Assembly: GCA_016840065.1 (NCBI GenBank)
Contig: JAEOTB010000036.1
Location: forward strand, 1 to 18,419
Direction of reading: 5' to 3'
DNA length: 18,419 bases
DNA from: Candidatus Hermodarchaeota archaeon
GTDB lineage: Archaea; Asgardarchaeota; Hermodarchaeia; Hermodarchaeales; Hermodarchaeaceae
This document shows positions 1,041-18,419 of this stretch, in pieces. Position numbers and translations under genes: made by a program. The notes beneath the pieces are model-generated. The model was not told where the DNA came from and searched no databases. It saw only the letters and a program-made list of their open reading frames with translations. Position 1 is the first letter of the stretch; every line of letters starts with the position of its first letter.

Positions 1041-1083
1041 TCTCTCCTATCCCTACAAAGGATGGCAGTGATAATCAAAGAGC

Positions 1084-1099
1084 CTAGCTCACTAGCTAG
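1084..1099. other. Short perfect hairpin between convergent genes
   Basis: CTAGCT-CACT-AGCTAG in the 1041-1117 convergent gap. Confidence 0.3.
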
Positions 1100-1117
1100 A
1101 ACTCCGTATCCCTTCTT

Positions 1118-1411: not shown

Positions 1412-1433
1412 GATGTTCGCATCTAATAATTTG

Positions 1434-1451
1434 CCTTATAGAAGGTTTTGG
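1434..1451 (-). promoter_or_regulatory. Candidate BRE/TATA promoter for a leaderless transcript of the CxxC gene
   Basis: Minus strand reads CCAAAACCTTCTATAAGG. The TATAA element ends about 25 nt before ATG 1411 and no SD is present. Confidence 0.35.
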
Positions 1452-1473
1452 TTTTACAAAGACCAAGAAACGG

Positions 1474-2385: not shown

Positions 2386-2443
2386 TAAATAATCTCCTCT
2401 GTTCCTAGCGTTCTCCTGTGTAGCGGTCGGTAACGTTGGTTGA

Positions 2444-3613
2444 TTACTTTTCTCTTTCGATTATTGTAGCGGTTCCCAGACCTAAGCCGCAGCACATTGT
2501 CACGAGACCGAAGCGGAGATTGCGGTCCTCCAGTGCGTTGAGGGCGGTGGTGATTAAGCGTACACCAGAAGCTCCAAGGGGGTGTCCTAAGGCGATGGAG
2601 CCTCCATGGGCTGATAGGCGTGGGTCGGTTAGTGGATCGAAGCCTAGCATCTTTCCTGTGGCAATCGGTACACTGCTGAACGCTTCGTTCACCTCTAAGA
2701 TGTCCATATCCTCTAAGGCAAGGCTGGCTCGTTCAAGGCAGGGGGGAGTAGCGTAGATAGGTCCTTCCAGACAGATAACCGGTTCGACGCCTACAACAGC
2801 CTGCGCTTTGACAAGTGCACGAGCTTTCAATCCTAGCTCATCCGCTTTTTCTCGGGACATTAGCATCACTGCTGCCGCACCATCATTGACAGGGCAGCTG
2901 TTTCCAGCAGTAACCACTCCACCAAAGAGAGGTGGTAGTGATGCTAGTTTCTCCATTGAGGTGTTACGGCGTGGGCTCTCGTCTTGTTTGACGAGTTTGA
3001 CGCCCCCATCCTCTTGGGGAGCTTCAATCGGTACTACTTCTTTATCGAATTTGCCTGCATCCCAGGCTGCAACGCCTTTCTGATGACTCCATAGGGCAAA
3101 CTTGTCCATCTCCTCCCGCGTGATTTCATACTTTTCCGCTATCTTTTCGGCACTCATGGGCATCGGGATGAACTGGTATTTCTGAATCAATTTCGGATTG
3201 AAACATAAATATCCTTCACCAAAATCAGCACCTATTGGCAGCAATGACATATGCTCAACGCCCGCTGCGATAACGATGTCTGCGTTGTCTGTGGCAATGG
3301 ATTGTGCAGCAAAATTCAGAGCCTGCTGGGAGGAACCACAAGCTCGATTCATTGTCATTCCCGGAACTGTGTAGGGAAAGTCTGCGCCTAGCAAGGCTAG
3401 CCTCCCGATATTCGCGCCTTGCTGTGCTGTCTGAGTGTTACATCCCATCATAACGTCATCGACTTGCTTTGGGTCGACCTCGTTTCGTTTGACTATTTCC
3501 CGTAGGACATGAGAAGCCAACTCGTCGGGGCGGACCTTGGCAAAGGCCTTTCCCCGTTTACCAATTGGTGTACGTATAGCGTCTACGATTACAGCTTCAC
3601 GAAGCTCTTTCAT
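2444..3613 (-). CDS. fadA: Acetyl-CoA C-acyltransferase (3-ketoacyl-CoA thiolase)
   Basis: RTPIGK start motif, catalytic NRACGSS, NEAF, GHPLGASG and TMCCGLGLG motifs; AAGGAG SD upstream. Confidence 0.95.
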   Translation of the reverse strand: MKELREAVIVDAIRTPIGKRGKAFAKVRPDELASHVLREIVKRNEVDPKQVDDVMMGCNTQTAQQGANIGRLALLGADFPYTVPGMTMNRACGSSQQALNFAAQSIATDNADIVIAAGVEHMSLLPIGADFGEGYLCFNPKLIQKYQFIPMPMSAEKIAEKYEITREEMDKFALWSHQKGVAAWDAGKFDKEVVPIEAPQEDGGVKLVKQDESPRRNTSMEKLASLPPLFGGVVTAGNSCPVNDGAAAVMLMSREKADELGLKARALVKAQAVVGVEPVICLEGPIYATPPCLERASLALEDMDILEVNEAFSSVPIATGKMLGFDPLTDPRLSAHGGSIALGHPLGASGVRLITTALNALEDRNLRFGLVTMCCGLGLGTATIIEREK

Positions 3614-3634
3614 GATGTATTTTTCTCCTTGAGG

Positions 3635-4423
3635 TTATTCGCCTGAGTATTTCGGTTTCCGCTTCTGTAGAAATGCAGAGACCCCTTCAATGAAGTCTTT
3701 TGTAGAGAAAAGTTTGCCGAATGATTTGGCTTCTAGTTCAAGCCCTTTCTCAAATGAGCCATATAGGCTCTGATTGATGCACTGCTTGGCTAGCTGTAAA
3801 GCTATTGGGGACTCTGAAGCAAGCTCTTTGGCGAAGTTCAAGACATCTTCCTCGAAGGATTCATTGGGCACTACCTTGTGAACTAACCCTATTTCCAGTG
3901 CTTCCTTCGCGGAGTACCGCTTTGATAGCATTATGGCTTCCTTTGCCCTGGCTATGCCAATGATGCGAGGTAGTCGCTGGGTGCCACCTCCCGCGGGGAG
4001 CAGAGATAATCGGACCTCTGTTAGTCCCATCTTCACTCTCTCTGCAGCTATCCGGAAGTCACAGGCTAGGGCGATTTCACATCCTCCACCAAAAGCGTAG
4101 CCATTTATTGCAGCTATCACTGGTTGAGGTAGCTTCTCAATCCGATGGAATAGTTTGTGAGCCATTGTGGCTAGTTCCTGCGCTTTCTCTGGTGTTGTTC
4201 CAGCACCATATGCTGTTAGGTCTGCACCGGCAGAAAACGCCTTTTCTCCTGCGCCAGTTAAGATCAAGACCCAGATTTCCCTGTCCTTCTCAATCTCAGT
4301 GAGTGCCTTACCTATATCTTCGATTAGTTGAAGATTGAATGTATTCAGTTTTTCGGGGCGATTTAATACGAGCCACGCAGTCTTGTGTTCAGGCTCCCTC
4401 TTCAGTAAAACAGTCTCGTACAT
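3635..4423 (-). CDS. Enoyl-CoA hydratase/isomerase (crotonase family)
   Basis: LNRPEKLN, FSAGADL oxyanion motif, GGGCE and TEV (both catalytic Glu), PAGGGTQRLPR, EGVSAFLQKRKP. Confidence 0.95.
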   Translation of the reverse strand: MYETVLLKREPEHKTAWLVLNRPEKLNTFNLQLIEDIGKALTEIEKDREIWVLILTGAGEKAFSAGADLTAYGAGTTPEKAQELATMAHKLFHRIEKLPQPVIAAINGYAFGGGCEIALACDFRIAAERVKMGLTEVRLSLLPAGGGTQRLPRIIGIARAKEAIMLSKRYSAKEALEIGLVHKVVPNESFEEDVLNFAKELASESPIALQLAKQCINQSLYGSFEKGLELEAKSFGKLFSTKDFIEGVSAFLQKRKPKYSGE

Positions 4424-4430
4424 CTTATCT

Positions 4431-4499
4431 TCCTCAAACCGATTTGAGTCGAATAGGTATTGTTCTTCCGACTCAAAAAGGCTTAAGGTACCATGGTAC
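4431..4499 (-). promoter_or_regulatory. Structured leader/regulatory region of the crotonase-thiolase operon
   Basis: Perfect 9-bp inverted repeat TTTGAGTCG (4443-4451) / CGACTCAAA (4469-4477); perfect 12-bp palindrome GTACCATGGTAC (4488-4499); SD GAGGA (4435-4431) 7 nt before the ATG. Confidence 0.5.
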
Positions 4500-4523
4500 A
4501 GGTGTTTAATTGATTCAACTACT

Positions 4524-5837
4524 CTAGTTGAGAATTAGGGTTTGTCCCTTAGTGGCAGCTTCTGCTGTGAACCCATATTCGCTTCGAAGTGTCTCTGCGA
4601 GGCTGTTACAGGCAACAGTATCGCCATGCATCGTCAGTATCTGGGGATTCCCCCTAGCATTGCGGAGGAAGTCCAGAACTTCCCCACGATCAACATGACA
4701 TGAGAAGTTGAAGGACTTGACCTTCGCCCTAACATGTAGCCTCTGACTAGAACCGTCTCTGGAGTGTAAGGTTAGGCTTCCTGTATCTAGAAGTTCTGCA
4801 CCTGGAGTACCTTGCAGTTGTTTACCTACCAGCAACACGCTGCTTCTACGGTCATCAGCAACAGCTCGGAGGTAATGCAACGCGGAGCCTCCTTTGAGCA
4901 TACCAGCTGGTGCTATGATAATCGCGGGGTCTTCTAGCGCCCGTCTTCGATCTGAAGCATTTCGCACAAAAGTGACGCGCTTAGCTGCCCGTTGGAGTTG
5001 AGGGCCACCAGTGAAGGATTGAGTATAGCGTTGCATCACACTGGTGACAGATTTAGCCATACCGTCGATATAGATGGGATAGTCAAGACCATGGCTGCGG
5101 TATTTGTGGAGTACACTTAGTACCTCCTGAGAGCGCCCCACTGCGAAGGCGGGAATCAAGACGGTTCCCCTTTCCTCAAGGGTAGCGCGCACGGTTTCTA
5201 CAAAGGTCTGCTCAACCTCTTTCCTTGGTGGATGCTCAGACAGAGCGTATGTGCTTTCCACTATGACGAAATCAAGTTCGCCTATCTCTTGTAGGCTAGG
5301 TGCACCTTGCACTAACTGGGTAGCTCTTGTGTTTAGGTCACCAGTATAGAGAATGCGGGTGGAGCCGCTTCCATTCCCTTCGATTTCCACGAGGATCGAA
5401 GCACTACCTGGTATATGTCCGGCATCCAGTAGGGTGACCCCAACCTTATCGCTAACTTGGTGCCTTTGGCCATAGGCTAAGGCTTGTGTGTTCTTTAGTA
5501 AGTGTTCTACTTCTTGTCGCTCAAAGGACAGGCTAGCACCACCAATCCGGAGCATATCCTTTAACAGTAATTTCGATAAGGCGCGAGTAAGCGCTGTAGT
5601 GTAGACAGGAACTGGCTGTGTGTGGCTTCCCGCGAGGAGTGGAAGGCTCCCACTATGATCTAGGTGAGCGTGGCTTAGAACCGCGGTCAAGTTCCGGGTA
5701 GATGTAGGTAATGGGGTACGGTGTTCTCCCTTGAACGCGACGCCATAATCCATGAGGACTCGGGCGCCCTTGTGTTCGATTAGCACTGCTGAGGCGCCTA
5801 CCTGTTGGCATCCGCCTAGAAATGTAATTTGGGTCAT
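4524..5837 (-). CDS. beta-CASP metallo-beta-lactamase ribonuclease lacking KH domains (aCPSF2/aCPSF1b-type, CPSF73-like)
   Basis: FLGGCQQVGAS, MDYG, SHAHLDHSG, AGHIPG, YTGD, ESTY, PAFAVGRSQE, GMLKGG, FSCH (motif B) and MHGD (motif C). At 437 aa there is no room for N-terminal KH domains. GGAGG SD at 5851-5847. Confidence 0.92.
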   Translation of the reverse strand: MTQITFLGGCQQVGASAVLIEHKGARVLMDYGVAFKGEHRTPLPTSTRNLTAVLSHAHLDHSGSLPLLAGSHTQPVPVYTTALTRALSKLLLKDMLRIGGASLSFERQEVEHLLKNTQALAYGQRHQVSDKVGVTLLDAGHIPGSASILVEIEGNGSGSTRILYTGDLNTRATQLVQGAPSLQEIGELDFVIVESTYALSEHPPRKEVEQTFVETVRATLEERGTVLIPAFAVGRSQEVLSVLHKYRSHGLDYPIYIDGMAKSVTSVMQRYTQSFTGGPQLQRAAKRVTFVRNASDRRRALEDPAIIIAPAGMLKGGSALHYLRAVADDRRSSVLLVGKQLQGTPGAELLDTGSLTLHSRDGSSQRLHVRAKVKSFNFSCHVDRGEVLDFLRNARGNPQILTMHGDTVACNSLAETLRSEYGFTAEAATKGQTLILN

Positions 5838-6178
5838 CTAGTAATCCCTCCCTGATTTAAAGTGTGAAAGCGTCGTCTGCTGATATGCAGAATCGACTAG
5901 GGTATTTTGATTAGTCTTAATTTGCAATATTTCTATTTCCTATGTTTTCTTGTTTTCCGCACCTGCCTCAAACGAGTCGTCTACCCAGACGCGAGACACT
6001 ATAATGGGAATCATAGCGCTAGGTGTTCGCCTCTTGCAGGACGGGTGAAATCACGTTGTCTCTAGATTCAATCCCAAATTGTAACTAAAATTAGAAACTG
6101 ATAGGAGGAAGCTAGGTAATTCCGTTTATTCACTCTAAGCCTCCTCAGATATGCGCGCACTTAAACATTCCTATTTTT
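5838..6178. other. Long (341 bp) non-coding gap with several stem-loops; possible structured RNA or UTR
   Basis: Hairpins at 5872-5897 and 5978-5991, a multibranch fold closed by GAGACA/TGTCTC (5993-6062), and a 9-bp stem 6105-6113/6138-6146. No ORF of 60 aa or more. Confidence 0.3.
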
Positions 6179-7084
6179 TCAGGCTGTGCTAATGCATGGG
6201 AAATGACCAAAAAGATCTTGGTAGCGGTCCTGCAGTCCTTGTAGAATCTTGTAGGGTACTTGGGCTGAGCCAAGGGGGGCTTTACCTTCTATTGCTCCGT
6301 GGTAATCAGAGCCTCCTGTCAAGACTAAATCGTACTGATCGGCTAACTGTTTCAGCTGCGCGAGTCGCTGTGGAATATTATCATACCACTCCTTAGAACG
6401 CCCTGCCACGTACTTGTAAGGATAAAGATGCTCAACACCCTGAAGACCCATTGGACAGAGTTTTATTAGCAATTCCTCGATTGGTGCTTTAATGGTGAAA
6501 GGGTGAGCAATGACAGGAAGTCCACTAGCATCTAGAATAGTTCGAATCCCTTCAGCGATGGTTGGTCTTGGACGCTGTGCATAGGCGGGGCGTCCATATC
6601 CGAGGTACTTGTCGAACGCTTCTTCGAAGGAGGATACATAGCCCTTGCGGATCATAACTTGTGCTAGGTGTGGGCGACCGATAGCCTCCCCGCAAACTTC
6701 CGCTTCCACCTCTTTTTGGTCGATGTCGATTCCCAACTGTCGCAGCTTTGCCAGCATCTTAGGTAGCCGTTCAGTTCGCCCTCTTCGCATACCCTTGAGT
6801 AACCGAGTGATGCCGGGGTTTGCGAGGTCAAAGTAGTAGCCCAGTAAGTGAATGCTTTTCCGCTCCCACTGACAGCTAATTTCCACACCGGGCACCACCG
6901 TTATACCAATCTTTGAACTCGCTTCCAAGGCCTCCGCTATCCCTGACACAGTATCATGATCTGTGATTCCCACTGCTCGAAGACCTAGATGGTGGGCTGT
7001 CTCTAATACTTGCGAAGGAGTATCCGAGCCATCAGAAGCGGTAGTATGAATATGGAGGTCTACAAAAGATGTCAAATTATTCAA
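6179..7084 (-). CDS. PHP-domain phosphoesterase (TrpH/YciV/RNase AM-like)
   Basis: DLHIHTTASDG, ITDHDT, PGVEIS, IHLLGY, GRPHLA, IAHP, TGGSDYHG motifs. Confidence 0.93.
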   Translation of the reverse strand: MNNLTSFVDLHIHTTASDGSDTPSQVLETAHHLGLRAVGITDHDTVSGIAEALEASSKIGITVVPGVEISCQWERKSIHLLGYYFDLANPGITRLLKGMRRGRTERLPKMLAKLRQLGIDIDQKEVEAEVCGEAIGRPHLAQVMIRKGYVSSFEEAFDKYLGYGRPAYAQRPRPTIAEGIRTILDASGLPVIAHPFTIKAPIEELLIKLCPMGLQGVEHLYPYKYVAGRSKEWYDNIPQRLAQLKQLADQYDLVLTGGSDYHGAIEGKAPLGSAQVPYKILQGLQDRYQDLFGHFPCISTA

Positions 7085-7093
7085 TCCTTATTA

Positions 7094-7990
7094 CTATTCG
7101 AAGGAGAGTGTGGGGAGGTGTTGACGGATAAACTGGAGCGACTCCTGCGCCTCCTTCATGGTTAATTCAAAGATGATAGCGCCCTTGTAATTTTTCTCCT
7201 GCAGATGAGTGAGTAACTCAGTGGTTGGTAGTTGCCCCTTTCCTAGAGCCTTATGATCTACACGCTTCACGAGTCCTCCTTCAATCACCTGATAACTCCC
7301 GTCATGTAAATGAATCTCGGCGATTCGGTCATAGTATCGCTTCACAAACTCTAGCGTTTCGATAGAACCAGATTGACCAGAAATCAGATGCCCAGTATCA
7401 AGACAGATGGAAGTATCAAGTCGTTCAGCAATCTTCCAGGTCACGTCAAAGGGAAACTCGACGTTTTCCAAGGCAAGACGACGTGGAGGGATTTTCGTCC
7501 GCTTTAATAATTCACGGATGCTTCTCTCTGCCACACTTACAAAATATCCGGCGATGATGCTCTTGAAGAGTTTTGGCAGTTTGAGGCGGCTAAATTCTGC
7601 AGCCAGCGAACCTGTCGCATGCACTACGTAAACCTCTGGTTCAAGGGGTTTCACAAGGTTCACCGCATCTACCAGACAATCTACTGATGCTTGGCGTATG
7701 TATTCGTTGGGACAAGACAGCTCTATCGCCCACAGGGGCAGGTGCGCTGTAAAGGTTAACCCCAGCTCCTCTTTGACTGCTAGAATACGTGCCACGGATT
7801 CCTCAGTTAGCCCTCCTGGTAATACGTACCTAACATCCATTGACAGCTCCATTAAAGAGAAACCCTGCTGGTGAGTTGCACGAAGAATATCTGCGAAGTT
7901 AAACCGGCCGAAATCTAATGCGCATTCGCTCCCCGCTATCTCGATGACATTCGCTAGCTCAAGCGGTGTAATTCCAAAACGCATTATCAA
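7094..7990 (-). CDS. AP-endonuclease-2/xylose-isomerase-like TIM-barrel metalloenzyme, CbiR (cobamide-remodelling phosphodiesterase)-like
   Basis: TAHLP, VVH, LALENVEFP, CLDTGH, EIHLHDG, DHKALG, IIFE metal-binding pattern. The fold is confident; the CbiR subfamily call is tentative. Start TTG 7990 or ATG 7984. Confidence 0.8.
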   Translation of the reverse strand: MIMRFGITPLELANVIEIAGSECALDFGRFNFADILRATHQQGFSLMELSMDVRYVLPGGLTEESVARILAVKEELGLTFTAHLPLWAIELSCPNEYIRQASVDCLVDAVNLVKPLEPEVYVVHATGSLAAEFSRLKLPKLFKSIIAGYFVSVAERSIRELLKRTKIPPRRLALENVEFPFDVTWKIAERLDTSICLDTGHLISGQSGSIETLEFVKRYYDRIAEIHLHDGSYQVIEGGLVKRVDHKALGKGQLPTTELLTHLQEKNYKGAIIFELTMKEAQESLQFIRQHLPTLSFE

Positions 7991-8135
7991 GACGCCCCAA
8001 GCTTTCTATTTTAACAGTAAGGAAGCTATGAAATTCAAGGTCATTAACGTAGCTCTTTAACCAAACATACAAACAGAAAATGTAAAAGGAACCTATACCT
8101 GCTAACCTTCACATTGAATCAGGAGTAGGAAAAAT

Positions 8136-8900
8136 ATGCCTCTTGTAGAACTGGAGAAAGAGAATCAAGTTGCAGTAATCACAATCAATAACCCGCCAGC
8201 GAACGCCCTCAACACCGAGATCTTCAAGACTCTCCGTGAGATGTTTACAGAACTTGACCAGGATGACACAAAGGTCATCATCCTTACTGGTGCAGGTGAC
8301 CGATTCTTCATCGGCGGCGCTGACATCAAACAATTCACAGGTCTTGACGCCAAGACTGCTGAGAAGCTTGCCCGCAAGGGACAGGAATTCACCCTCTTCA
8401 TTGAACAGCTAAGCAAGGTCATAATCGTCGCGGTTAACGGGTTCTGCCTTGGGGGTGGCATGGAAATCTCCCAGGCCTGCGACTTCATAATAGCATCAGA
8501 AAAGGCAAAATTCGGTCAAACCGAAATCAAACTCGGCATCATACCTGGGTGGGGTGGCACCCAACGCCTTCTCCGCTGGATGGACCCACAGCGTGCCCGA
8601 GAACTGATACTAACGGGCGAGATTGTTCCCGCCTCGGAGATGGGATCCTTCTGCTACAAGGTGGTTACCCCCGATCAGCTCCTTCCCACGGCAAAAGAGT
8701 TGGCTCAACGCATCGCCTCTCATGGGCTAGTAGCTGTTAAACTCGCGAAGATGGCGATGAAACAGGCCTTGTACCTGCCACTAGAGGAGGGGTTAAAGCT
8801 GGAGGCTCGCTATTTCGGAGAGACCTTCGCCTCCGAAGATGGCAAAGAGGGCGTAAAGGCCTTTATCGAAAAACGCAAGCCAAAAATTGTTGACCGCTAA
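8136..8900 (+). CDS. Enoyl-CoA hydratase/isomerase (crotonase family), second paralog
   Basis: INNPPANAL, FIGGADI, GGGME and TEI catalytic Glu residues, PGWGGTQRL, EGVKAFIEKRKP; AGGAG/AGGA upstream. Confidence 0.95.
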   Translation: MPLVELEKENQVAVITINNPPANALNTEIFKTLREMFTELDQDDTKVIILTGAGDRFFIGGADIKQFTGLDAKTAEKLARKGQEFTLFIEQLSKVIIVAVNGFCLGGGMEISQACDFIIASEKAKFGQTEIKLGIIPGWGGTQRLLRWMDPQRARELILTGEIVPASEMGSFCYKVVTPDQLLPTAKELAQRIASHGLVAVKLAKMAMKQALYLPLEEGLKLEARYFGETFASEDGKEGVKAFIEKRKPKIVDR

Positions 8901-8932
8901 GGTTAGAATGAGGAGTAGAAGGCTCCTAACCT
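8900..8932 (+). other. 3' stem-loop after the crotonase stop codon
   Basis: AGGTTA-(GAATGA bulge)-GGAG-TAGAAGG-CTCC-TAACCT; no T-tract follows. Confidence 0.3.
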
Positions 8933-8991
8933 GCGTCTAGAGGCTCTAGAGTACATTAAGCCAAGAGATATTAGACTAGACACACTATTCT

Positions 8992-9006
8992 GGAAATGTA
9001 TATAAA
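8992..9006 (+). promoter_or_regulatory. Archaeal BRE-TATA promoter of the giant surface-protein gene
   Basis: GGAAATG followed by TATATAAA (8999-9006), implying a start site near 9030. GGTGG SD at 9077-9081 is 7 nt before ATG 9089. Confidence 0.6.
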
Positions 9007-9088
9007 GTGAGCCCTCGCATTCTTCATTACTCTACATGATAGGCCAGATGGGAGAAGACTAGAATTCTCCATCTATGGTGGTCTCTAC

Positions 9089-12000
9089 ATGCGAAACACC
9101 ACAAAAATCCTAACAATAATATTCTTCCTTTGTACTGTGATGTGCATGGGGACCCAGGCCCCAAGTGGACAGGGGTTAACGCGGGGCTTACCCGCGCCCA
9201 ACTCGCCCCACACAGGGTCTGGAATCACCTTCGATGTATACGAGTTCGCTAAAAACGTAAGCGCACTCTACACAGATGGTGACAACGAAACCGATTTCAC
9301 ATTCAACAGTGCTAACTACCCCACAGGATACGAAGGATACCGAATGCACACAATGGTATCCGGACTGGGCCGAACCTTCGATGCTTTGCAGGGGTTCAAT
9401 GGCGACTTCGATGCGGGTTGGGCTGAACTCGGTGGCAACTGGACGGAAACAACTGACCAGGGTGTCGTGACGAGTATCTACAACACTTCCGGTGGCAGCC
9501 CTGATCAATGTCTCGCCCTCGAAATGAAGGGAGGCAACGTCCGCTGGGGTAAATACAATGAGATAGACGACTGGTTCTACTACATGCCTAGCCTCGAACC
9601 AAGTCTCGCCACTTGTTCATTTAGCATCAAGTACGGCTCTGATTTGACAGGGAAGCTAGAATTCAGTGTCCAACTCTACAGCCCTATTGTATCTCCAAGC
9701 ACCCTTCTGAATGAGTGGGTCTTAGACATCAGTACTCCATGGGCTCCTACCCATGGCTATGACGTCTGGCACAACGAATCCTTCACAACAGACACTTATG
9801 GTATCTCAGGTCCCATCCTTCTCCGAATTAAGGTCTTGAAAGTACACGACAACGGTGCTGTTAAGGGTCATGTGTACTTTGATAACTTCAAATACACACT
9901 CCTCACAGATTGCACACCCACCGAAGTGCAATTAGCCCTAAACGGAACAGCCCTGCAAGACGGACTCCTCAACGATGGTTCAGTCGACATCTACGCTGAT
10001 CCAGCAAACATGACAGAGGCTCCAATGACCAACACTTGGGAAACTGACCAACTCTTCCAATTCACCACAAACGACACTAGCATCCATTACGATTACAACT
10101 ACACAATGTACGTTAAGAGCTTGGACGCTGATGCAGCGACCTCAACCTTTACGGCTCCTGTGGATGAAGATCCCACATGGGAAATCAACTACACTATTCC
10201 TACTACAGGAAGTCCACCTACAACACCGATAGAATATACTGGCTACTGCTATGGAATATTTCTAGATACTGCGTGGACACTAACATCAGTAAGGAATCAC
10301 ACGGGGCACGCAATCTCCACCTATACTTACAATACAACAAGCTACTTTGTCAAGTTAGACGAAGATGTACCCTCTGCCGACGAAACCTTCTCAATATACG
10401 CCTCAAGTTCCAATTACATCTTAGAGATGATACCGCAAAAGGCCGCGTCATCTTCAGGACCGTGGACCAACCTCACATCGGGTGACTACTATATCAAGGG
10501 TGATTGGATGCGAGTCTTGGTCCTACTAAATGATATTGGGGCAGAGACAAAATATGCAAATGTTTCGGTCTTCTATCCGAACAGAGACCTTTGGATGAGT
10601 AATAATACACCAGTATACGACACTTATAGCAATAGCTTTGTTGCTGGCGGTTGGCAAATACCTCAGCTTGTGAATGCGAGCGATGCCGGTAGAACCGCTG
10701 GGAGTGATTGGCTAATAACGGCTACCTTTAACACAAACAAACAGTCAGGCATGCGAGAAAAAAGCATGACTGCAGCCATCGAAACATATGGCACAAAGAT
10801 TGCGCCTAACGATGGACTACGGGTTATCTGGGGAGACACCATCACCGTAAATGCAACTTGGACAAACCAGGACAACAGCGTAAACATCACAGACGCCTCA
10901 CTTGCACGTATTCGGTTCATCGACCGCTACTCGCAAATCCAGTACGTTGTGATGTCCCCCAACGGTTACGGCTCATACTCAACGGACTTAGCAACCGACC
11001 TTATGACTCCTGACCGTACTGCCCAATTCCAAGTGGAAATGTTCGGGTATGGCTATGTCAATGTTAGTTACGACGAAGGAACACACCTCTCCTACACCAT
11101 CAACCTCGTCAACGACCTTGATTTAATCATGGTCAAACCTACTCAGAAGGTTGGTGAGAACTACGAAGCCGAAACCACGTCTGTTGCAGGATATGTTAGC
11201 CAAGTCAGGTTCTATGACACCTATCAAGAAGACTATGTTCAGAACGCATCAATCTGGATAAATACTGAAGTTGTTTACAACTACTACGAGGATACCGGAA
11301 GCGGTTTCGGTGGTGTAATCTCTACAGGTAGTTTCATCCCCGATGCAGCTGATCCTACGTTGTACGAAAGGAACGACACCTCCTATACTGGTGTAGCTCG
11401 AGTTAAGTACGAGTGCAACATGACAATCACCAATCCCTCCACTTGGGATTATGAACAGCAGAACTTTACCATAATAATCTGGATTGTACAATTCCAGACC
11501 AATCTTGATGCGATACGCACAACAGTAACCTATCCTCCAACTGGTACTGGCGATGGATGGACCCAATACGACGCCGCCTCTGATGGCTACGAAGTCAATG
11601 TCTACTGGAGGGAGAAGCTCAACATCACAGTATACTATACCAATGAATCGACTGGTCAAGGTATTGGTGATGCAAGTGCAAACCTCACAATTGACACAAG
11701 TATGTCCAGTATGTCAAACGTAGGTGGAGGATATTACTACTACTCCTTGAATACATCAACTGTCGGCATCGGTTCAACAGATTTGTATGTGAACGCTACT
11801 CGCGCTGAACATGCAACTCAGACCATAAAGATTCGACTCATTGTTGTAGCGCGCGCGACAACACTAACCAAGGACCAACCAGGTTCAACCAAGACATTAC
11901 CCTACGACGAGGATTTCGCCATAGTCTTCACCTACCAGGATAGCGTTCCTACAGTACCCGATCCTCTTGAAAACGCTACAGGAGAAGTGGGATGCACTGT

Positions 12001-15000
12001 TACAGGATATATCACGGGCTACTACACCATTCAAGGCCACGGCGATGGAACCTACACAGTGACATTCTTCGGCAACCTCACAGAAACTACCTACTATGTA
12101 ACCATAGCCTTCACTCGAACCAATCACACTGGTCAGAGTCAATACTTCGAAATCACAATTCGTGAAGTGTACACAACAAGCTACGGCTCTGCCGATCCCG
12201 CCTCTGTAGCTTGGGGTGACAATGTTAGCATCACATTAAATTACAACGACACTGACCACAGCTATGCAGGCATTGATGGAGCTACAATCTCCTTCACATG
12301 GCAAGATGATATCGCTGGAGTTGACTACTGGATAACTGACAACAACGACGGTACCTACACTATCTTATTGAGCACATTGAAGGTAGCATCAGGCACACAG
12401 AACTTCCTGATAACGTTCGAATCATCAAAAACTCACTACGAAAACGCTACGGCAATGGTATCCTTCCAAGTCCGAGATATACTATCAGCCCTCTACATTG
12501 TATCCATCGAACCAGGTACGTCTGTACCTTGGGGCGACACTATGACAATCGTCTTGACCTACAATGACACAGAACACAGTTACATACCAATTATTGGCGC
12601 TGTGATTAGCTGTGATTGGGACACATTCTATTGGAGCTTTGCGTACAACGCTACAGACCAGACCTACATACTAACAATCAATACAGCGAGTCAAAACGAA
12701 GGCAGTTACTCCCTACACATCTATGCCAATTGTGATCACTACACAACTGGAATGACCATCCAGTCCTTTGTAATCCGTGAAATACAGACAGGCTTTACTG
12801 TTGATCCAGTATATGTTGGAGCTCACCCGTGGGGTGACAACATCACATTCACCCTAGTGTACTTGGACCTCGACCACGGTGGGAACATCACTCTTGCCGA
12901 AATTGAAACGGACTGGGATCCTGGTTACTTCACCTTCTACTGGTATCTTAATGGTTCCTACGCGATGGAACTCGATACAACTTGTAAAGGTTTAGGAATC
13001 TACTCGGTCGAATTCGTACTCTACCGAAACCACTATGCTAACGCTACGGTCACAGTCCAGATAGTCATCATCCCCCGACCGCTCTTTGTGGCAGTACTCT
13101 CTACTTCACCCGTGACTGTTGATTATGGAGGTGACGTCGTTGTCACCGTTCAAATCACTGACCATCACGGATACCGTATCAACGATTCCACGACAGTATT
13201 CCGCTGGGGAGGCCATGCAGATGTAGCTATGTCCTTTATCGGCAATGGTGTTTGGAACGTGACCTTTACCGCGAACGAAACTATAGGCACCTACATTGTT
13301 ATTGTAGAAACAAGTAAAACTTACCACCAGACAGCTATAGGCTCCGTCACATTGAACATCTTACCAATCGGCACAACATTGACCATCCTAAACGGCACTA
13401 TTACTATCCTTGTTGGAGACACCTTCCAAATCATGGCGAACTTCACTGATGAACACGGTACTCCACTCACTAGTGATGTAACCATGTTCTTCACCTGGGC
13501 TGACAAACCGACAGAATACTTCACTCATCTTGGTGATATTCTAGGCAGCGCCTACAACGGGATGTACAATGCAACGCTAAACAGTACCGGTCTCTCCTAT
13601 GGCGTAACGTACATTGTCACTGTCATTGGACTCTGCCCCAACCACGTGGATGGGTTCGATGTAATTTCAGTAAACGTAATTGCAATGCCTGTCAGTCTCG
13701 AGATAGACTTTCCACACCTTGATGTCCCCTGGGGTGAAAACTTCACTATTGAAGTCTACTTCAACAATACCTACAGTAACTCACCCGTAACTGGTGCGTT
13801 AATAATCTGGCACTGGGATGGTGAAATGGGATACTTCATTGAAGGGGTACCCCCATCACCTGGCTCAATACCACCAGCTGCTGGCGACTATTACATCACA
13901 CTCCAAACAGACCAAATGACTGTGGGTGAAGGATATTCATTGGTTGTTGAAGTCGACCATCCAGGTATGCAATACACCAAGGTTGCCATAGACGTCAGTG
14001 TTATCGCGACGCCAACGCTACTCGACGAAGAATACGCCCAATCCTACTACGGACCAACAGGCTACATAGACCTTGAGCCCATATACGAGGCTCCAATCGG
14101 TGATGAACTTCACGTCTACTACAACTTCAGCTATGAAAACGGAGACCCAGTTACAACTGGTGCAGCTACCTACTACTGTACCTTCGACACCGGTAACCTC
14201 GAATATAACGCGACTGAATTATTCTGGTGCGCCAAAATCGATCTCACAGGAGTACCAGTAGGACTCTACACCCTCAATGTACTCTTCGTTGTTCCCAACC
14301 ACGAAACGGGTTCGATGGACATAGACTTCCGTGTGATTGAAGTGCCAACACAGGTTCGACTTGATACATCTCTTGAAATCGCTACTACAAATAACACAAT
14401 AGAAGTATTTACTGGAACACCTTTCGACTTCAAAGTCATCTACTGGGATACCCACCACGACATACCTATCTCCGAAGCTCTAGTCAGATTCGAAAGTACC
14501 AATCTCTGGGCTCAAACGGATATGACAGACAGCGGCAACGGATATTACACTGCTAGCGGTCTAAGCGTCGCTATTGATGGATCCTATCGTATAGACATCT
14601 CGGCTCAGGGTGAAACAAAACACGCTCAAGGACAAATGACCATAACACTGGTAGTCAAGACTCACCCACTTGTGGCCCTTGGCTTCCAGAGCGGACTCCT
14701 AATCGCGCTGATTGGGTTGATGATAATCATCGGATGGCTCATCTACACCCGACTCTTCGCTATTCCATGGTTCGTCCGCAAATGCCGGAGCATGGCTCGC
14801 ACCATTGGTCGAGGCAAGCACCCCCACCTCTCTGACCGCGACCGCCAGCGCCTACCCCAGCGACCGGTCCAGATGATAGACATCGTGGACGACAGCTACG
14901 ACACAATCGGAGTCAAAGTCACAGCAGCGATGATTCCTGCCGCCCTCGCCCTTGAGGAGCGGGAGGCAGAAGATGATGTCATCTGGCGAGAGCTAGAAGC

Positions 15001-15328
15001 ACTGGAGGGTCTTGGCCCTGAGCAGAAACGAGAACTCTTCGAGGAGATGCGCCGCATCCCTGCAAAGGACCGAGTCTGGTTCCTAGAAGACCTCAAACGC
15101 CAGCTAGCCGACGGCACACGCTTCGCCCACACAACAGCAGACGCAGCTCGCGAGGCACCACCAGAGACTGTTGCACCATCAGGGGTTGATCCCGCCATCG
15201 CAGCGCGGGTGGAGGCCCTCAAGACACTCGGCCCAGAAGAGAAGCAGGCAATCCTAGCACAGCTAAGCACTCTCTCCAAGGCTGAACAAGAAGCAGTCAT
15301 CATGACCCTCGAAGAGGGCGAAAGCTAG
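9089..15328 (+). CDS. Giant (2079 aa) type-I membrane surface glycoprotein with tandem Ig-like repeats and a cytoplasmic helical tail
   Basis: N-terminal signal peptide (MRNTTKILTIIFFLCTVMCMG); Thr/Tyr/Asp/Asn-rich beta ectodomain with roughly 50 N-x-S/T sequons by manual count; single TM GLLIALIGLMIIIGWLIY (aa 1869-1886) followed by a basic patch (RK, R, R, RGK); charged helical C-terminal tail. Confidence 0.9.
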   Translation: MRNTTKILTIIFFLCTVMCMGTQAPSGQGLTRGLPAPNSPHTGSGITFDVYEFAKNVSALYTDGDNETDFTFNSANYPTGYEGYRMHTMVSGLGRTFDALQGFNGDFDAGWAELGGNWTETTDQGVVTSIYNTSGGSPDQCLALEMKGGNVRWGKYNEIDDWFYYMPSLEPSLATCSFSIKYGSDLTGKLEFSVQLYSPIVSPSTLLNEWVLDISTPWAPTHGYDVWHNESFTTDTYGISGPILLRIKVLKVHDNGAVKGHVYFDNFKYTLLTDCTPTEVQLALNGTALQDGLLNDGSVDIYADPANMTEAPMTNTWETDQLFQFTTNDTSIHYDYNYTMYVKSLDADAATSTFTAPVDEDPTWEINYTIPTTGSPPTTPIEYTGYCYGIFLDTAWTLTSVRNHTGHAISTYTYNTTSYFVKLDEDVPSADETFSIYASSSNYILEMIPQKAASSSGPWTNLTSGDYYIKGDWMRVLVLLNDIGAETKYANVSVFYPNRDLWMSNNTPVYDTYSNSFVAGGWQIPQLVNASDAGRTAGSDWLITATFNTNKQSGMREKSMTAAIETYGTKIAPNDGLRVIWGDTITVNATWTNQDNSVNITDASLARIRFIDRYSQIQYVVMSPNGYGSYSTDLATDLMTPDRTAQFQVEMFGYGYVNVSYDEGTHLSYTINLVNDLDLIMVKPTQKVGENYEAETTSVAGYVSQVRFYDTYQEDYVQNASIWINTEVVYNYYEDTGSGFGGVISTGSFIPDAADPTLYERNDTSYTGVARVKYECNMTITNPSTWDYEQQNFTIIIWIVQFQTNLDAIRTTVTYPPTGTGDGWTQYDAASDGYEVNVYWREKLNITVYYTNESTGQGIGDASANLTIDTSMSSMSNVGGGYYYYSLNTSTVGIGSTDLYVNATRAEHATQTIKIRLIVVARATTLTKDQPGSTKTLPYDEDFAIVFTYQDSVPTVPDPLENATGEVGCTVTGYITGYYTIQGHGDGTYTVTFFGNLTETTYYVTIAFTRTNHTGQSQYFEITIREVYTTSYGSADPASVAWGDNVSITLNYNDTDHSYAGIDGATISFTWQDDIAGVDYWITDNNDGTYTILLSTLKVASGTQNFLITFESSKTHYENATAMVSFQVRDILSALYIVSIEPGTSVPWGDTMTIVLTYNDTEHSYIPIIGAVISCDWDTFYWSFAYNATDQTYILTINTASQNEGSYSLHIYANCDHYTTGMTIQSFVIREIQTGFTVDPVYVGAHPWGDNITFTLVYLDLDHGGNITLAEIETDWDPGYFTFYWYLNGSYAMELDTTCKGLGIYSVEFVLYRNHYANATVTVQIVIIPRPLFVAVLSTSPVTVDYGGDVVVTVQITDHHGYRINDSTTVFRWGGHADVAMSFIGNGVWNVTFTANETIGTYIVIVETSKTYHQTAIGSVTLNILPIGTTLTILNGTITILVGDTFQIMANFTDEHGTPLTSDVTMFFTWADKPTEYFTHLGDILGSAYNGMYNATLNSTGLSYGVTYIVTVIGLCPNHVDGFDVISVNVIAMPVSLEIDFPHLDVPWGENFTIEVYFNNTYSNSPVTGALIIWHWDGEMGYFIEGVPPSPGSIPPAAGDYYITLQTDQMTVGEGYSLVVEVDHPGMQYTKVAIDVSVIATPTLLDEEYAQSYYGPTGYIDLEPIYEAPIGDELHVYYNFSYENGDPVTTGAATYYCTFDTGNLEYNATELFWCAKIDLTGVPVGLYTLNVLFVVPNHETGSMDIDFRVIEVPTQVRLDTSLEIATTNNTIEVFTGTPFDFKVIYWDTHHDIPISEALVRFESTNLWAQTDMTDSGNGYYTASGLSVAIDGSYRIDISAQGETKHAQGQMTITLVVKTHPLVALGFQSGLLIALIGLMIIIGWLIYTRLFAIPWFVRKCRSMARTIGRGKHPHLSDRDRQRLPQRPVQMIDIVDDSYDTIGVKVTAAMIPAALALEEREAEDDVIWRELEALEGLGPEQKRELFEEMRRIPAKDRVWFLEDLKRQLADGTRFAHTTADAAREAPPETVAPSGVDPAIAARVEALKTLGPEEKQAILAQLSTLSKAEQEAVIMTLEEGES
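11597..14660 (+). repeat. About 10 tandem ~100-aa Ig-like beta-sandwich repeats (protein level), plus a more distant copy near aa 581
   Basis: Recurring V-x-(W/Y)-G-(D/E)…Y-x-D-x-x-H…I-x-x-A…W…(D/N)-G-x-Y-x-I-x-L-x-T…H-Y. Anchor residues are at aa 840, 939, 1042, 1148, 1248, 1346, 1442, 1548, 1670 and 1775 (spacing 96-122 aa). Confidence 0.8.
14981..15310 (+). repeat. Duplicated 38-aa helical module in the cytoplasmic tail
   Basis: IWRELEALEGLGPEQKRELFEEMRRIPAKDRVWFLEDL (14981-15094) versus IAARVEALKTLGPEEKQAILAQLSTLSKAEQEAVIMTL (15197-15310): ungapped, 10/38 identical, with a conserved hydrophobic pattern. Confidence 0.85.
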
Positions 15329-15352
15329 CCAACATCTCAGTCGAACACAAAA

Positions 15353-15423
15353 ACAGGCGCGTAACAACACCGGCAAACACCGGTTAGGAACGCGTCTGTC
15401 TCTCCTCTTTTTTCCTATTTTTT
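15353..15423 (+). terminator. Stem-loop plus oligo-T terminator after the giant gene
   Basis: ACAGGCGCGT (15353-15362) pairs with ACGCGTCTGT (15390-15399, one G-U); upper stem ACCGG/CCGGT; then a pyrimidine tract with two T6 runs (15408-15413, 15418-15423). Confidence 0.65.
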
Positions 15424-15445
15424 ATATAGCATGCGTTAATGCTAT
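15421..15445 (+). promoter_or_regulatory. TATA box overlapped by an inverted-repeat operator candidate
   Basis: TTTATATA at 15421-15428 and ATAGCAT-N6-ATGCTAT at 15426-15445. No purine-rich BRE upstream, which weakens the call. Confidence 0.4.
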
Positions 15446-15494
15446 TAGGTGGATTCAGTAGCATACTTTCCTCTCAGGAGAAAAACTATTCACG

Positions 15495-16271
15495 GTGAAT
15501 TTGGAAATGCCAGGAGCGAACGAATCAGAAAGCAGATTATTGCTCAAACTCATTAAGGAGCGCCACGCCATCCGTGATTATGATACAAAAAGAATGGTAA
15601 GTGACGAGCTCCTCTATCAAATAATTGAAGCAGGTGGTTATGCCCCTAGCGCGGAAAACCAGCAACCTTGGCGGTTAATCATTGTTCGTGATCGCGCCAA
15701 ACAAAGGCGAATCGGTGAAATCGCCGTTGACCGTACCATCGAACTCTTCGGTCGTATCACTCCTCGACAGGAATTGGAACGCCGGCTTGATTACGTTCAG
15801 GCGATACCAAGCCGTGAACGAACCATCGACTGGCTGATTACAGGAAGGCGCTTCGAATACATCAAAGGTGAACCTGAGACTGACGGCGCCCCAATACTAC
15901 TGGTATTAGCTGTCGAGTCAACACATGTCGGTAATTCTCAACCCACACTCCGAGGAACTGGCGGTGTATATGGTTGGAGCAGCTATCGACACGCGGTCAT
16001 CGCTGGCAGCATGCTAATGGAAAACATGATGTTAGCCGCTACCGCCTTGGGGCTTGGGAGTTGTGTTTCCAGTGTCCAACTTGACCATTTTGACGATGTC
16101 CGCGAAATATCTGAGTTGCTGGGGATTCCACATCCTCACTGGGTCCCGATTCTATGTCTTGCCATCGGCTATGCGAAATACCCACGGACTCGTGGACCAC
16201 CACGACAAACACCTGAGGAAATCACATTCGTGGACAAATGGGGAGCGAACTGGCAACCAAAACGTGATTGA
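15495..16271 (+). CDS. Nitroreductase-family flavoprotein (FMN-binding)
   Basis: ERHAIRDY (RRSIR-like), APSAENQQPWRLIIV, ENMMLAATALGLGSC, LAIGY. Start GTG 15495 or ATG 15507. Confidence 0.9.
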   Translation: MNLEMPGANESESRLLLKLIKERHAIRDYDTKRMVSDELLYQIIEAGGYAPSAENQQPWRLIIVRDRAKQRRIGEIAVDRTIELFGRITPRQELERRLDYVQAIPSRERTIDWLITGRRFEYIKGEPETDGAPILLVLAVESTHVGNSQPTLRGTGGVYGWSSYRHAVIAGSMLMENMMLAATALGLGSCVSSVQLDHFDDVREISELLGIPHPHWVPILCLAIGYAKYPRTRGPPRQTPEEITFVDKWGANWQPKRD

Positions 16272-16288
16272 TGCGGGAGGATTAGAAG

Positions 16289-16813
16289 ATGAACTCATTA
16301 ACTACACTACAGAAATTCTTCACGAGTTGGATGGATCAACTTTGGTGGAGTATGCGTGATCGCGTCGGAGCATTATCGATGATTGAATGTTGGGTCGAAT
16401 CATGGCGGGCAGCGAGTATTGAAATCAGCAAATTAGCTCAGGTTGACGGTTTAACACCCCAAGAAACAGCAGAGAAGATCCTTGAGATGTTAGGTAAAAC
16501 CGTTCAGGTTCAGGGAAACACTATCCATATCACGAAATGCCCAATCTGGGACCGAATAAAAGAAAGAGGTCTAGAATACGCCTATCGCTGCGAAGAGTTC
16601 GCTTGTACACCATTACTACAAGCAACTGGAGCTTCTGAAGTATCGGTGGAAACCAGTTTACGCTTAATGCACTTAGAACGCGCAAGACTTGAGTACAAAA
16701 TTGCAAAGACCGGAAAGGCGGCAACAAGCGATTCTAAGGCAGAGCGTGAGAAACTCGAAAAAGAGTTGAAGCGGCTGCCCAAACAACCTCACTGCCTATT
16801 TAAAATAAAGTAA
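16289..16813 (+). CDS. Hypothetical protein, V4R/ATC-hydrolase/MetOD1-like Cys pattern with a coiled-coil insertion
   Basis: IHITKCPIW (C84), RCEEFAC (C101, C106) and terminal HCLFKI (C169); GGGAGG SD upstream. Confidence 0.65.
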   Translation: MNSLTTLQKFFTSWMDQLWWSMRDRVGALSMIECWVESWRAASIEISKLAQVDGLTPQETAEKILEMLGKTVQVQGNTIHITKCPIWDRIKERGLEYAYRCEEFACTPLLQATGASEVSVETSLRLMHLERARLEYKIAKTGKAATSDSKAEREKLEKELKRLPKQPHCLFKIK

Positions 16814-16834
16814 CACGGTATCAATTATAATCTG

Positions 16835-18232
16835 GTGCTAGGGATGTGCTCAAAGACGTCACATCAGGAGTTGACGGGTCTTTTCGCTCCCAAATCCATT
16901 GTACTAGTAGGTGCAAGCTCGAATCCCCAATCCTTGGGTTTTACTGTCGCCCGTGCTCTCCTCCAACAATTCGAAGGGCCAGTCTACTATCTAAGCCCAA
17001 CAGAAGCCAAGGTTTTAGGTTCTCCCACCTTTGCTAGAATTGAAGAAATCCCCCAAGGGCAACATCTCTGGATTTTCGCAGCAGTGACGAAGGATTTCCC
17101 AGTCCTTCTTCAGCAGATAGGTGAAAGAACCCCCGCGGCTCTAATGTTATTAATGGAAATTCCTAGTCATATCGAATCAGAAGCATTGAAGGTTCTTACG
17201 GGGATTAAATGCCCAATTATTGGTCCTCGGAGCGCTGGCTACCTTGATACAGCCACAATGCTCGACACAATAACACTTCCCAAAGATATGATTCAGCGGC
17301 CACCTTCAGGTGCCACAGGCGCCCTTACTGATAATCGGGATGTCGCATTCGGGTTACTAGAACTCCTGAGCAAATATCGGTGCGGTGTTTCTCAAGTAAT
17401 AGATCTTGGCGATGCTATTGGCGTCGATGAATCTGATGTGCTTTCCTACTTCGCTGGCAATCCAAGCACTCGGGTTATTCTGCTAGCAAGTGGGCAGATA
17501 GCAAGGCTGAGGAAATTCAAAACAGCTATTCGAAGCGCCAAACGTGCCAAGAAACCGATAATCGTTCCACAGTTCTCTGAGGAAATAGTCGGTATGCTCG
17601 GACTCCACCGACGAACTGACAATGGAGTATCTGATATCACAAAAGAGCTAGTTGATGAACTTGGGCTGATACAAACCAGTTCCTGGGGGAGAGCCGTGGA
17701 TTTAGCCAAGCTCTGTCAGTGGCAGCCTCTCCCAAAGGGTCCAGGCATAGCAGTCATCTCGAATTTCGGACCTTACTGTGTCAATGCTGCCAGTAGCCTT
17801 CAAGATTCCAAAATGAACGTGGCACATCTTGCTGCAGAAACCCTCCGTCAATTACAAGACAAACTCCCTCCGTATTGCAGGGCGAATAATCCCACCTGTC
17901 TTTACACCAATGCTGACGAAATCCGTCTCGACACTGCTCTACAAATCGTGTTTCCTGACCCATCCGTTCATACAGTAATGCTCTGCTTACTCCCCACTTC
18001 GCCGTTTATCGATTCAGATTATCTAGGTATAATGCTTCGCCAGCGCCTTGCTAGAATAAAAACTCCCAAAACGATGATTGGAGTCATCCCTGCAACCGAG
18101 CCTGACAATCTATTAGTCCAGTCTCTTGAGCAACTCCAAATCCCTGTCTATTCTAATCCTCATCGAGCGGTTAGCACGTTGGAAACAGCCTATAACTATG
18201 TCAGCTCTACACTAAAAACAAGGAGAAAATGA
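16835..18232 (+). CDS. ADP-forming acyl-CoA synthetase alpha-subunit homolog (CoA-binding plus ligase domains), highly divergent
   Basis: LFAPKSIVLVGASSNP..LG CoA-binding start, IIGP..G, KKPII, PLPKGPGIAVISN, LPP…NP, DPSVHTV, IPVY..P.RAV. Several catalytic motifs are altered. Start GTG 16835 or ATG 16844. Confidence 0.85.
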   Translation: MLGMCSKTSHQELTGLFAPKSIVLVGASSNPQSLGFTVARALLQQFEGPVYYLSPTEAKVLGSPTFARIEEIPQGQHLWIFAAVTKDFPVLLQQIGERTPAALMLLMEIPSHIESEALKVLTGIKCPIIGPRSAGYLDTATMLDTITLPKDMIQRPPSGATGALTDNRDVAFGLLELLSKYRCGVSQVIDLGDAIGVDESDVLSYFAGNPSTRVILLASGQIARLRKFKTAIRSAKRAKKPIIVPQFSEEIVGMLGLHRRTDNGVSDITKELVDELGLIQTSSWGRAVDLAKLCQWQPLPKGPGIAVISNFGPYCVNAASSLQDSKMNVAHLAAETLRQLQDKLPPYCRANNPTCLYTNADEIRLDTALQIVFPDPSVHTVMLCLLPTSPFIDSDYLGIMLRQRLARIKTPKTMIGVIPATEPDNLLVQSLEQLQIPVYSNPHRAVSTLETAYNYVSSTLKTRRK

Positions 18233-18234
18233 AA

Positions 18235-18419
18235 ATGTACAAAGCATACGTTTTGATTAAGGTCGTCCCACACGCAGAAGATAAAATCCTGAGAGAACTC
18301 AGCAAAGTTCCCGCAATCACCGAGGCACACAAGCTCTTCGGAGTTTATGACCTCATTGTTGAAATCGAAAGAAAGGGAATGCGAGAAATCATGGAAAGCG
18401 TTTCTCGGATTCGCAGCCT
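18235..18419 (+). CDS. Stand-alone Lrp/AsnC ligand-binding (RAM) domain protein, truncated by the window edge
   Basis: Not in the ORF track. Translates MYKAYVLIKVVPHAEDKILRELSKVPAITEAHKLFGVYDLIVEIE…IRS, with AYVLI and G-x-YDLIV signatures and no HTH. AGGAG at 18221-18225; an in-frame ATG at 18229 overlaps the upstream TGA. Confidence 0.88.
   Translation, partial: MYKAYVLIKVVPHAEDKILRELSKVPAITEAHKLFGVYDLIVEIERKGMREIMESVSRIRS

Follow-up and report, generated by a model that had tools for sequence, protein, structure and literature searches.

Gene and domain layout of the protein

A single open reading frame (ORF) at positions 9089-15328 (plus strand) of an 18,419-nucleotide stretch of DNA from Candidatus Hermodarchaeota archaeon (GenBank assembly GCA_016840065.1, contig JAEOTB010000036.1, positions 1 to 18,419; hereafter the window) encodes a putative giant surface protein of 2,079 amino acids (aa) plus a stop codon. 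The protein carries a conserved C-terminal tail, and a motif of this tail is linked in other Asgard archaea to a family of soluble proteins of about 375 aa. The source assembly (G000) consists of 131 contigs and is 84% complete; contigs are labelled C and GTDB families f, the source family being f1. The nearest relatives are metagenome-assembled genomes (MAGs) labelled Hermodarchaeota or Promethearchaeota, such as 'Candidatus Hermodarchaeum yapensis' and H02S_Hermod_124. Identities and dN/dS values for parts of the protein were computed against a same-genus orthologue (G003), with dS about 1.1-1.4 throughout. Structures were predicted with AlphaFold2 (AF2), whose confidence is given as predicted local distance difference test (pLDDT) scores. 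The parts of the gene are as follows, in window coordinates.

9089..9163, plus strand: signal-peptide-like N-terminus, residues 1-25, with a basic n-region and a hydrophobic core (hydropathy; pattern common to orthologues)
9206..10723, plus strand: all-beta head, residues 40-545, a jelly-roll resembling carbohydrate-binding modules (CBMs) and galactose-binding domains, then beta-sandwich domains (AF2 and Foldseek)
10724..14683, plus strand: stalk, residues 546-1865, about 12-13 tandem beta-sandwich repeats of ~100 aa, rich in glycosylation sequons (internal repeat matches, sequon map)
14684..14749, plus strand: single transmembrane (TM) helix, residues 1866-1887 (Kyte-Doolittle 2.4; AF2 helix with pLDDT 86-96)
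14750..14905, plus strand: juxtamembrane (JM) motif, residues 1888-1939 (alignment A4, 29 tails of several Asgard lineages)
14951..15124, plus strand: acidic helical module 1, residues 1955-2012 (invariant columns of alignment A1; AF2 helices with pLDDT ~77-82)
15125..15184, plus strand: variable Ala/Pro-rich linker, residues 2013-2032 (62% identity, low pLDDT)
15185..15328, plus strand: helical module 2, residues 2033-2079, plus stop (diverged repeat of module 1; dN/dS 0.047)

In a public gene call for this ORF (P0002, 2,060 aa) the third Met is taken as the start, which shortens the protein by 19 codons (window 9089-9145) and cuts off the signal peptide. The N-termini of orthologues favour the start at 9089.

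Topology and glycosylation signals

The N-terminus consists of MRNTTK followed by hydrophobic residues 7-25. Between this segment and the membrane helix, residues 26-1865 contain 53 N-x-S/T sequons, compared with 20.3 +/- 4.0 expected from 500 composition-matched shuffles, and the 192-aa tail has zero sequons and not a single Asn. The source genome also encodes an STT3/AglB oligosaccharyltransferase. The sequon excess and the presence of this enzyme make it probable that many of the 53 sites in the ectodomain of about 1,840 aa carry N-glycans. Residues 1866-1887 form the sole strong hydrophobic segment near the C-terminus. One Lys or Arg lies in the 15 residues before this helix and 11 lie in the 52 residues after it, and by the positive-inside rule the tail is therefore placed in the cytoplasm. 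The same order of signal peptide, sequon-rich ectodomain and sequon-free tail is seen in 19 of the 19 first homologues. The topology put forward in a preliminary description of the locus, namely a signal peptide, a sequon-rich ectodomain, one TM helix and about 190 cytoplasmic residues free of sequons, thus holds in each part, and nothing in the charge distribution places the tail outside.

Head and stalk of the ectodomain

The head was modelled by AF2 with 14 orthologous sequences (model m6f158a493b94), at a pLDDT of only 70. Foldseek searches of this model against the PDB, as the preliminary description had suggested, gave matches to CBM16, CBM4, CBM61 and CBM28, to the MAM domains of meprin and PTPRK and to Eph ligand-binding domains, with E-values of 1.6e-5 to about 5e-4. 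The four CBM families match at E 2.8e-5 to 2.4e-4 with target TM-scores of 0.33-0.63, the highest value being reached with single-domain CBMs. In the predicted structure the tip is a galactose-binding-domain-like or CBM4_9-type jelly-roll, an assignment that holds at the level of fold only because the head has no sequence match in Pfam. An Atlas feature search with the head gave scores of 0.81 or less, which serve as a lead only.

The stalk shows internal repeats of about 100 aa from residue ~530 to 1860, with E-values down to 8e-12. These repeats are visible in segment-wise BLAST, whole-protein self-BLAST giving the identity match only, and the count of 12-13 beta-sandwich domains is an estimate from length. 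The repeats confirm the Ig-like stalk that had been proposed from the sequence. The whole protein has three weak, sub-threshold Pfam matches (Invasin_D3, CarboxypepD_reg and Ribophorin_II). Curated S-layer models are absent from the Pfam matches, and NCBIfam gave no match.

The cytoplasmic tail is the best-conserved part of the protein

The tail is under strong purifying selection and is conserved better than any other part of the protein. The ectodomain is 47% identical to that of the orthologue, with a dN/dS of 0.34, and the tail is 89% identical with a dN/dS of 0.06. Within the C-terminal region, dN/dS is 0.11 for the TM helix and JM segment together and 0.023 for module 1, which is 96.6% identical. 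AF2 predicts that the TM helix continues as a basic JM helix, followed by a poorly ordered stretch and by two small helical modules on either side of the variable linker; part of the tail is predicted to be disordered. The JM core reads F-A-I-P-W-F-V-R-K...G-R-G-K-x-P, with P1893, R1897 and R1925 invariant, and an alignment of 29 sequences restricted to the JM segment keeps P-x3-R and the downstream R without exception. The motif shared by the family after the TM helix, [FYW]-x-[IVY]-P-x-x-[VIL]-R ... G-[KR]-x-x-P ... R, is present in the window protein, which the JM model recognises at E 1.1e-22. Module 1, which has a W-F-L-E-D-L core, is nearly invariant across Hermodarchaeota tails. The hidden Markov models (HMMs) of modules 1 and 2 recognise each other, and the two modules are therefore diverged repeats.

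The tail resembles no described family in the databases searched, including described membrane anchors. There is no family match in Pfam, in NCBIfam (E up to 1) or among PDB sequences, where a profile search gave nothing below E 0.5. Foldseek with the tail model gave nothing at E <= 0.001 in the PDB, TM-scores in a fold search of the ESM Atlas did not exceed 0.35, and no signalling domain was detected in the tail. Weak Pfam matches on tails (YqbF_HeH, HAAS, BET and DUF3106) are all sub-threshold; the commonest one among 16 tails, YqbF_HeH, has a best E-value of 0.0016 and stays below the 27-bit cut-off. The modules were also compared with FliG- and MgtE_N-type repeats (PF03448 and PF14842), which match none of the 16 tails at E up to 10. 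An MgtE_N match belonged to an unrelated repeat protein, P0063, and hence not to the tails.

The lack of a known domain or fold match and the partly disordered prediction would suit a plain membrane anchor, in which the tail merely stabilises the topology and its conservation comes from constraints unrelated to any partner. However, a stop-transfer signal requires just a few basic residues, module 1 is 96.6% identical with a dN/dS of 0.023 at a dS above 1, and the motifs are invariant across lineages. A plain anchor is therefore very improbable.

A multigene family confined to Asgard archaea

The source genome contains a second copy of the tail, at the end of an open frame (C29:2617-24003, minus strand) whose 7,129-aa product has 230 sequons. 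This paralogue has the TM helix, JM segment and modules of the window protein, with a Pro/Glu-rich linker of ~170-190 aa between modules 1 and 2. The tail is common to paralogues with unrelated ectodomains, is carried by 18 of the 18 genomes of the source family, and reaches up to 11 matches per genome in the sister genus. At the syntenic locus, where the enoyl-CoA hydratase, nitroreductase and CoA-binding flanks are those of the window, the sister genus (L054-L063, L009-L018) has 3-4 tandem paralogues in place of the one gene found here. Array members have tails 56-60% identical to the window tail and ectodomains that are only 23-28% identical. The ectodomain orthologues in these arrays, proteins of ~2,100 aa, are 42% identical over their full length (36-44% in the head), with tails only 45% identical; one extra copy of module 2 is found in their tails. 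The closer tail match with non-orthologous array members points to tail exchange or to faster drift of tails in the sister genus.

The tail profile finds only 50 clusters among 1.84 billion representative proteins, and in every full-length match the tail forms the C-terminal end of a large protein. Distant Asgard tails keep the order of TM helix, JM segment, module 1, linker and module 2, and others have the JM segment only or the JM segment with module 2. Many members in f9 and f2 have the JM segment without modules. The taxonomic range, a check that the preliminary description had called for, was surveyed in 151 Asgard genomes, comprising 150 sampled at a completeness of at least 85% and the source assembly. 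The JM model matches 95 of the 151, with 1-9 copies each in ORFs of up to 6,208 aa. About 12 of 23 GTDB families have the motif, for example f6 (37/37 genomes) and f9 (33/34), and the JM model does not find it in f4 (0/18), f21 (0/9), f13 (0/5) or f19 (0/4). All named matches to the JM segment or the tail are Asgard proteins (Hermod, Thor, Loki, Odin and Hod) annotated as 'hypothetical'. As judged from these matches, the window protein is a member of a widespread Asgard multigene family and no isolated oddity. Literature searches found no paper that describes the tail or a link between the giant proteins and a partner.

One MAG labelled 'Candidatus Thorarchaeota' (JBHLSA01, isolate TM2M.154; L075, L081, L088) has Hermod-type tails. 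Its label is probably wrong: the tail coordinates on one contig equal those in G013, which belongs to the GTDB genus of the Hermodarchaeota MAGs.

A soluble family linked to the juxtamembrane motif

Gene order, co-occurrence and one fusion show a link between the JM family and a family of proteins of about 375 aa. When the ORFs within 5 kb downstream of 40 JM-bearing genes were clustered, such a protein was encoded repeatedly right after the JM-bearing gene, in the same orientation, in f9 and f2. From the partner side, a JM-bearing ORF ends 0-83 nt upstream in 14 of 14 further high-scoring members (f9, f20 and f22) for which enough upstream sequence was available. The coupled loci total 21 in four GTDB families (f9, f2, f20 and f22), with gaps of 0 to about 350 nt; five lower-scoring paralogues of the ~375-aa protein have no JM gene upstream. 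The family has no Pfam match and no TM-like segment (maximum hydropathy 1.28 or less). The tails of the coupled surface proteins are short, about 70 aa, and consist almost entirely of the JM segment; any cytoplasmic contact must therefore involve this segment.

Across the survey, the ~375-aa family is present in 104 of the 151 genomes, including all 95 that are JM-positive, and 47 genomes have neither; presence and absence of the two agree also within f3 and f14. In G141 (C270, L153, minus strand), a ~375-aa domain (E 4e-56) is joined within one frame of at least 1,283 aa to a JM-like segment, a TM helix and an ectodomain with sequons. Of the intracellular partner proposed in the preliminary description, the genomic association is thus borne out by gene order, phyletic co-occurrence and one fusion, and physical binding is what we infer from it.

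In the source genome the only orthologue of the ~375-aa protein lies at C85:5927-7219 (minus strand) and is found at E 1.1e-67 by an HMM from which it had been left out. Its start lies 177 nt downstream of a gene for a longin-Arf-like GTPase fusion (L132:3397-4260) within a duplicated cassette of four co-oriented genes (C85:5927-10515, minus strand; L132:1928-6450). In order, these encode a longin-Arf-like GTPase, a 298-aa protein whose N-domain is related, another longin-Arf-like GTPase and the ~375-aa-family protein, which carries a Lys/Glu/Pro-rich C-terminal extension absent from the operon-coupled members.

The gene coupling is also relevant to a second explanation, in which the JM segment, and perhaps the modules, would form a biogenesis or sorting signal read by a cytoplasmic insertion, folding, sorting or retention factor. 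The ~375-aa protein would then be a dedicated chaperone or targeting factor, and in the installed protein the tail would serve neither signalling nor the cytoskeleton. Gaps of 0-15 nt, close to translational coupling, are what a chaperone and its client typically show, and no signalling domain is detectable in the tail. As in PGF-CTERM/archaeosortase A, LPXTG/sortase and PEP-CTERM systems, many different surface proteins of one genome carry a short conserved motif beside the C-terminal TM helix. However, those signals have their motif on the outer side and only a short basic cluster inside, whereas in the window protein the motif is cytoplasmic and a further 140 conserved residues come after it, the 192-aa tail evolving at a dN/dS of 0.06. 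With 192 aa after the helix and no NCBIfam match at E up to 1, the protein was rejected as a PGF-CTERM or archaeosortase substrate. In addition, the partner orthologue of the source genome adjoins a longin-Arf-like GTPase gene and not the giant genes, and the fused form would keep the 'chaperone' permanently attached. A role in biogenesis or sorting is therefore considered unlikely.

A third explanation requires no separate partner. The JM segment has a net charge of +5 and the modules have net charges of -6 and -5, so that acidic modules and basic JM helices of neighbouring molecules could bind each other or anionic lipids below the membrane and cluster the giant proteins into an amorphous coat. 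The duplicated module would permit multivalent contacts, no other ORF of the genome has the modules, and cultured Asgard cells have an amorphous coat and not an S-layer (10.1101/2025.11.06.686947; PMC11284389). However, such self-association leaves the operon coupling, co-occurrence and fusion with the ~375-aa family unexplained, and the many f9 and f2 members without modules do not fit it. We regard it as improbable.

Proposed mechanism

The reading that we prefer, to which we assign a probability of roughly 0.55, is that the window protein is a variable adhesin or receptor built on a constant cytoplasmic docking module, the JM segment of which engages the ~375-aa soluble family. The signal peptide would send the ectodomain of ~1,840 aa across the membrane, producing a type-I surface glycoprotein. 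At the tip of 12-13 beta-sandwich domains, the jelly-roll head, a fold known here from prediction, would most likely bind a glycan or the surface of a partner. The fast-evolving ectodomain would be mounted on a constant 192-aa unit formed by the basic JM helix and two acidic modules, each predicted to have three helices. The JM segment would act as the docking site for the ~375-aa protein, here the product of C85:5927-7219. Through docking, variable adhesins or receptors would be connected with one shared intracellular machine, either for signalling inward or for positioning and anchoring from the inside. In tails of the Hermod and Thor type, modules 1 and 2 may provide further protein-binding sites.

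Several points weigh against docking on the ~375-aa family. The partner gene is unlinked from the giant genes in the source genome, in f1 and in the Thor-like f6; the giant-partner link therefore rests on other lineages, and it is from these that we infer docking of the window tail on the C85 protein. Nine genomes have the ~375-aa family and no detectable JM motif. The genomes surveyed are related and hence not independent, which deprives the nominal Fisher P of meaning, and a handful of gains or losses may account for their co-occurrence pattern. The fusion was seen once, on a contig of 4.6 kb; its JM segment is too diverged for the JM model, and it may be an artefact of assembly or sequencing. 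A chaperone or sorting factor would account equally well for the tight coupling of the genes. No other ORF of the genome contains module 1 or 2, and neither module has a candidate partner. Expression, glycosylation and surface location are deduced from sequence.

The cassette around the partner orthologue allows an extension of the docking mechanism, in which the JM tail, the ~375-aa protein and the longin-Arf-like GTPase would form a receptor-to-small-GTPase module predating eukaryotes, and variable adhesins would recruit a GTPase regulator to the membrane. The position of the orthologue in a longin-Arf-like GTPase cassette recalls the longin, roadblock and small-GTPase repertoire of Asgard archaea (Tran et al. 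2024, PMC10933270; Liu et al. 2020, preprint 10.1101/2020.10.19.343400); the ~375-aa family itself has no Pfam match. A term search of PMC10933270 gave no transmembrane, membrane-protein or receptor partners for these regulators, and the paper states that the GTPase genes of MK-D1 lie mostly outside operons with their regulators. The GTPase module is a speculative and rather doubtful extension.

Other partner candidates

Three other sets of genes were considered. Complex prediction of the tail (residues 1887-2079) with a 225-aa longin/winged-helix protein (C128), using alignments A1 and A2, gave a score of 0.01, which speaks neither for nor against binding, and no longer fused forms of the 225-aa protein were found. 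A 421-aa longin-roadblock-double-winged-helix protein (C80) occurs only in f1, f6 and f25 and never beside the giant genes, and was rejected as a JM partner because its range is too narrow. This range coincides with that of tails with modules 1 and 2 and probably represents a single clade. In f6 (for example G098:C2:167617-169821), a gene for a longin and winged-helix protein of ~300 aa lies directly upstream of a gene for a longin-roadblock-double-winged-helix protein of ~430 aa, a layout that resembles the NPRL2/NPRL3 pair.

A gene immediately upstream of the 7,129-aa paralogue and in the same orientation (C29:24329-26455, minus strand; L019:327-2453) encodes a 708-aa protein with an N-terminal longin-like domain and ~590 aa of helices. 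The adjacency is found in 4 of 5 sister-genus genomes and not in f6. It is given little weight because synteny is generally conserved between the genera.

Genomic setting of the window

The genes that flank the giant gene are metabolic and encode a thiolase, two enoyl-CoA hydratases, a beta-CASP nuclease, a PHP protein, a TIM-barrel protein, a nitroreductase and a CoA-binding protein. No candidate partner gene of the giant protein is encoded within the window. Between the nitroreductase and CoA-binding protein genes lies a 174-aa ORF without a Pfam match (window 16289-16813, plus strand), which has a 180-aa counterpart at the conserved position in the sister genus. The window DNA is present in marine-sediment metagenomes (three DNA runs of one study, two of them possibly its source), and no RNA sequencing runs with it are listed.

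Comparison with known surface proteins

Archaeal S-layer-type glycoproteins, such as the haloarchaeal S-layer glycoprotein and SlaB of Sulfolobus, end a few residues past the TM helix or are processed at a PGF-CTERM. They share with the window protein a Sec signal peptide, a large N-glycosylated, beta-rich ectodomain and a single C-terminal TM helix. In contrast, the window protein has a conserved cytoplasmic unit of 192 aa and fits no S-layer model of Pfam or NCBIfam, and the ectodomains of its multigene family are variable.

The preliminary description drew a parallel with eukaryotic single-pass adhesion receptors, which stands for architecture and fold and fails for homology. Type-I adhesion receptors, including the integrin beta-talin and cadherin-catenin systems, the MAM-Ig-FN receptors RPTP mu and kappa, and Eph receptors, likewise combine a signal peptide, a glycosylated, modular ectodomain in which a jelly-roll head tops beta-sandwich repeats, one TM helix, a basic JM segment and a conserved, enzyme-free tail, here proposed to dock a soluble protein. 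The Foldseek matches of the head include the PTPRK MAM-Ig-FN and Eph ectodomains. However, there is no sequence homology anywhere, the tail fold is unrelated and docking in the archaeal protein is conjectural. Neither the ectodomain nor the tail has a Pfam match that would place it in the integrin, cadherin, Ig-CAM, Eph or RPTP families, and the fold likeness of the head is of a very common kind that is also found in bacterial CBMs.

Clustered protocadherins and PfEMP1 of Plasmodium offer a further analogy, since they too are tandem paralogues with fast-evolving ectodomains and a conserved TM and cytoplasmic segment; that of PfEMP1 is a conserved acidic terminal segment. The likeness is one of analogy only: the constancy of the archaeal tails comes from purifying selection on separate genes and not from shared exons, and nothing points to switching or antigenic variation.

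Implications for the Asgard cell surface

Cultured Asgard archaea lack an S-layer and are covered by an unidentified amorphous protein coat (10.1101/2025.11.06.686947; PMC11284389). They crawl on surfaces in an adhesion-dependent manner with actin-filled protrusions, and the adhesion molecules have not been named (PMC13716822). A widespread family of giant glycoproteins that is found in Asgard archaea only, carries a strongly conserved tail and is associated through gene order, co-occurrence and one fusion with a single soluble protein provides concrete candidates for this coat and for what connects it with the inside of the cell. If the ~375-aa partner acts together with the adjacent longin-Arf-like GTPase, the coupling of surface receptors to GTPases would be older than eukaryotes. 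Such a module, if it exists, would link encounters with particles or partner cells to the remodelling of actin and membranes that underlies protrusions and crawling.

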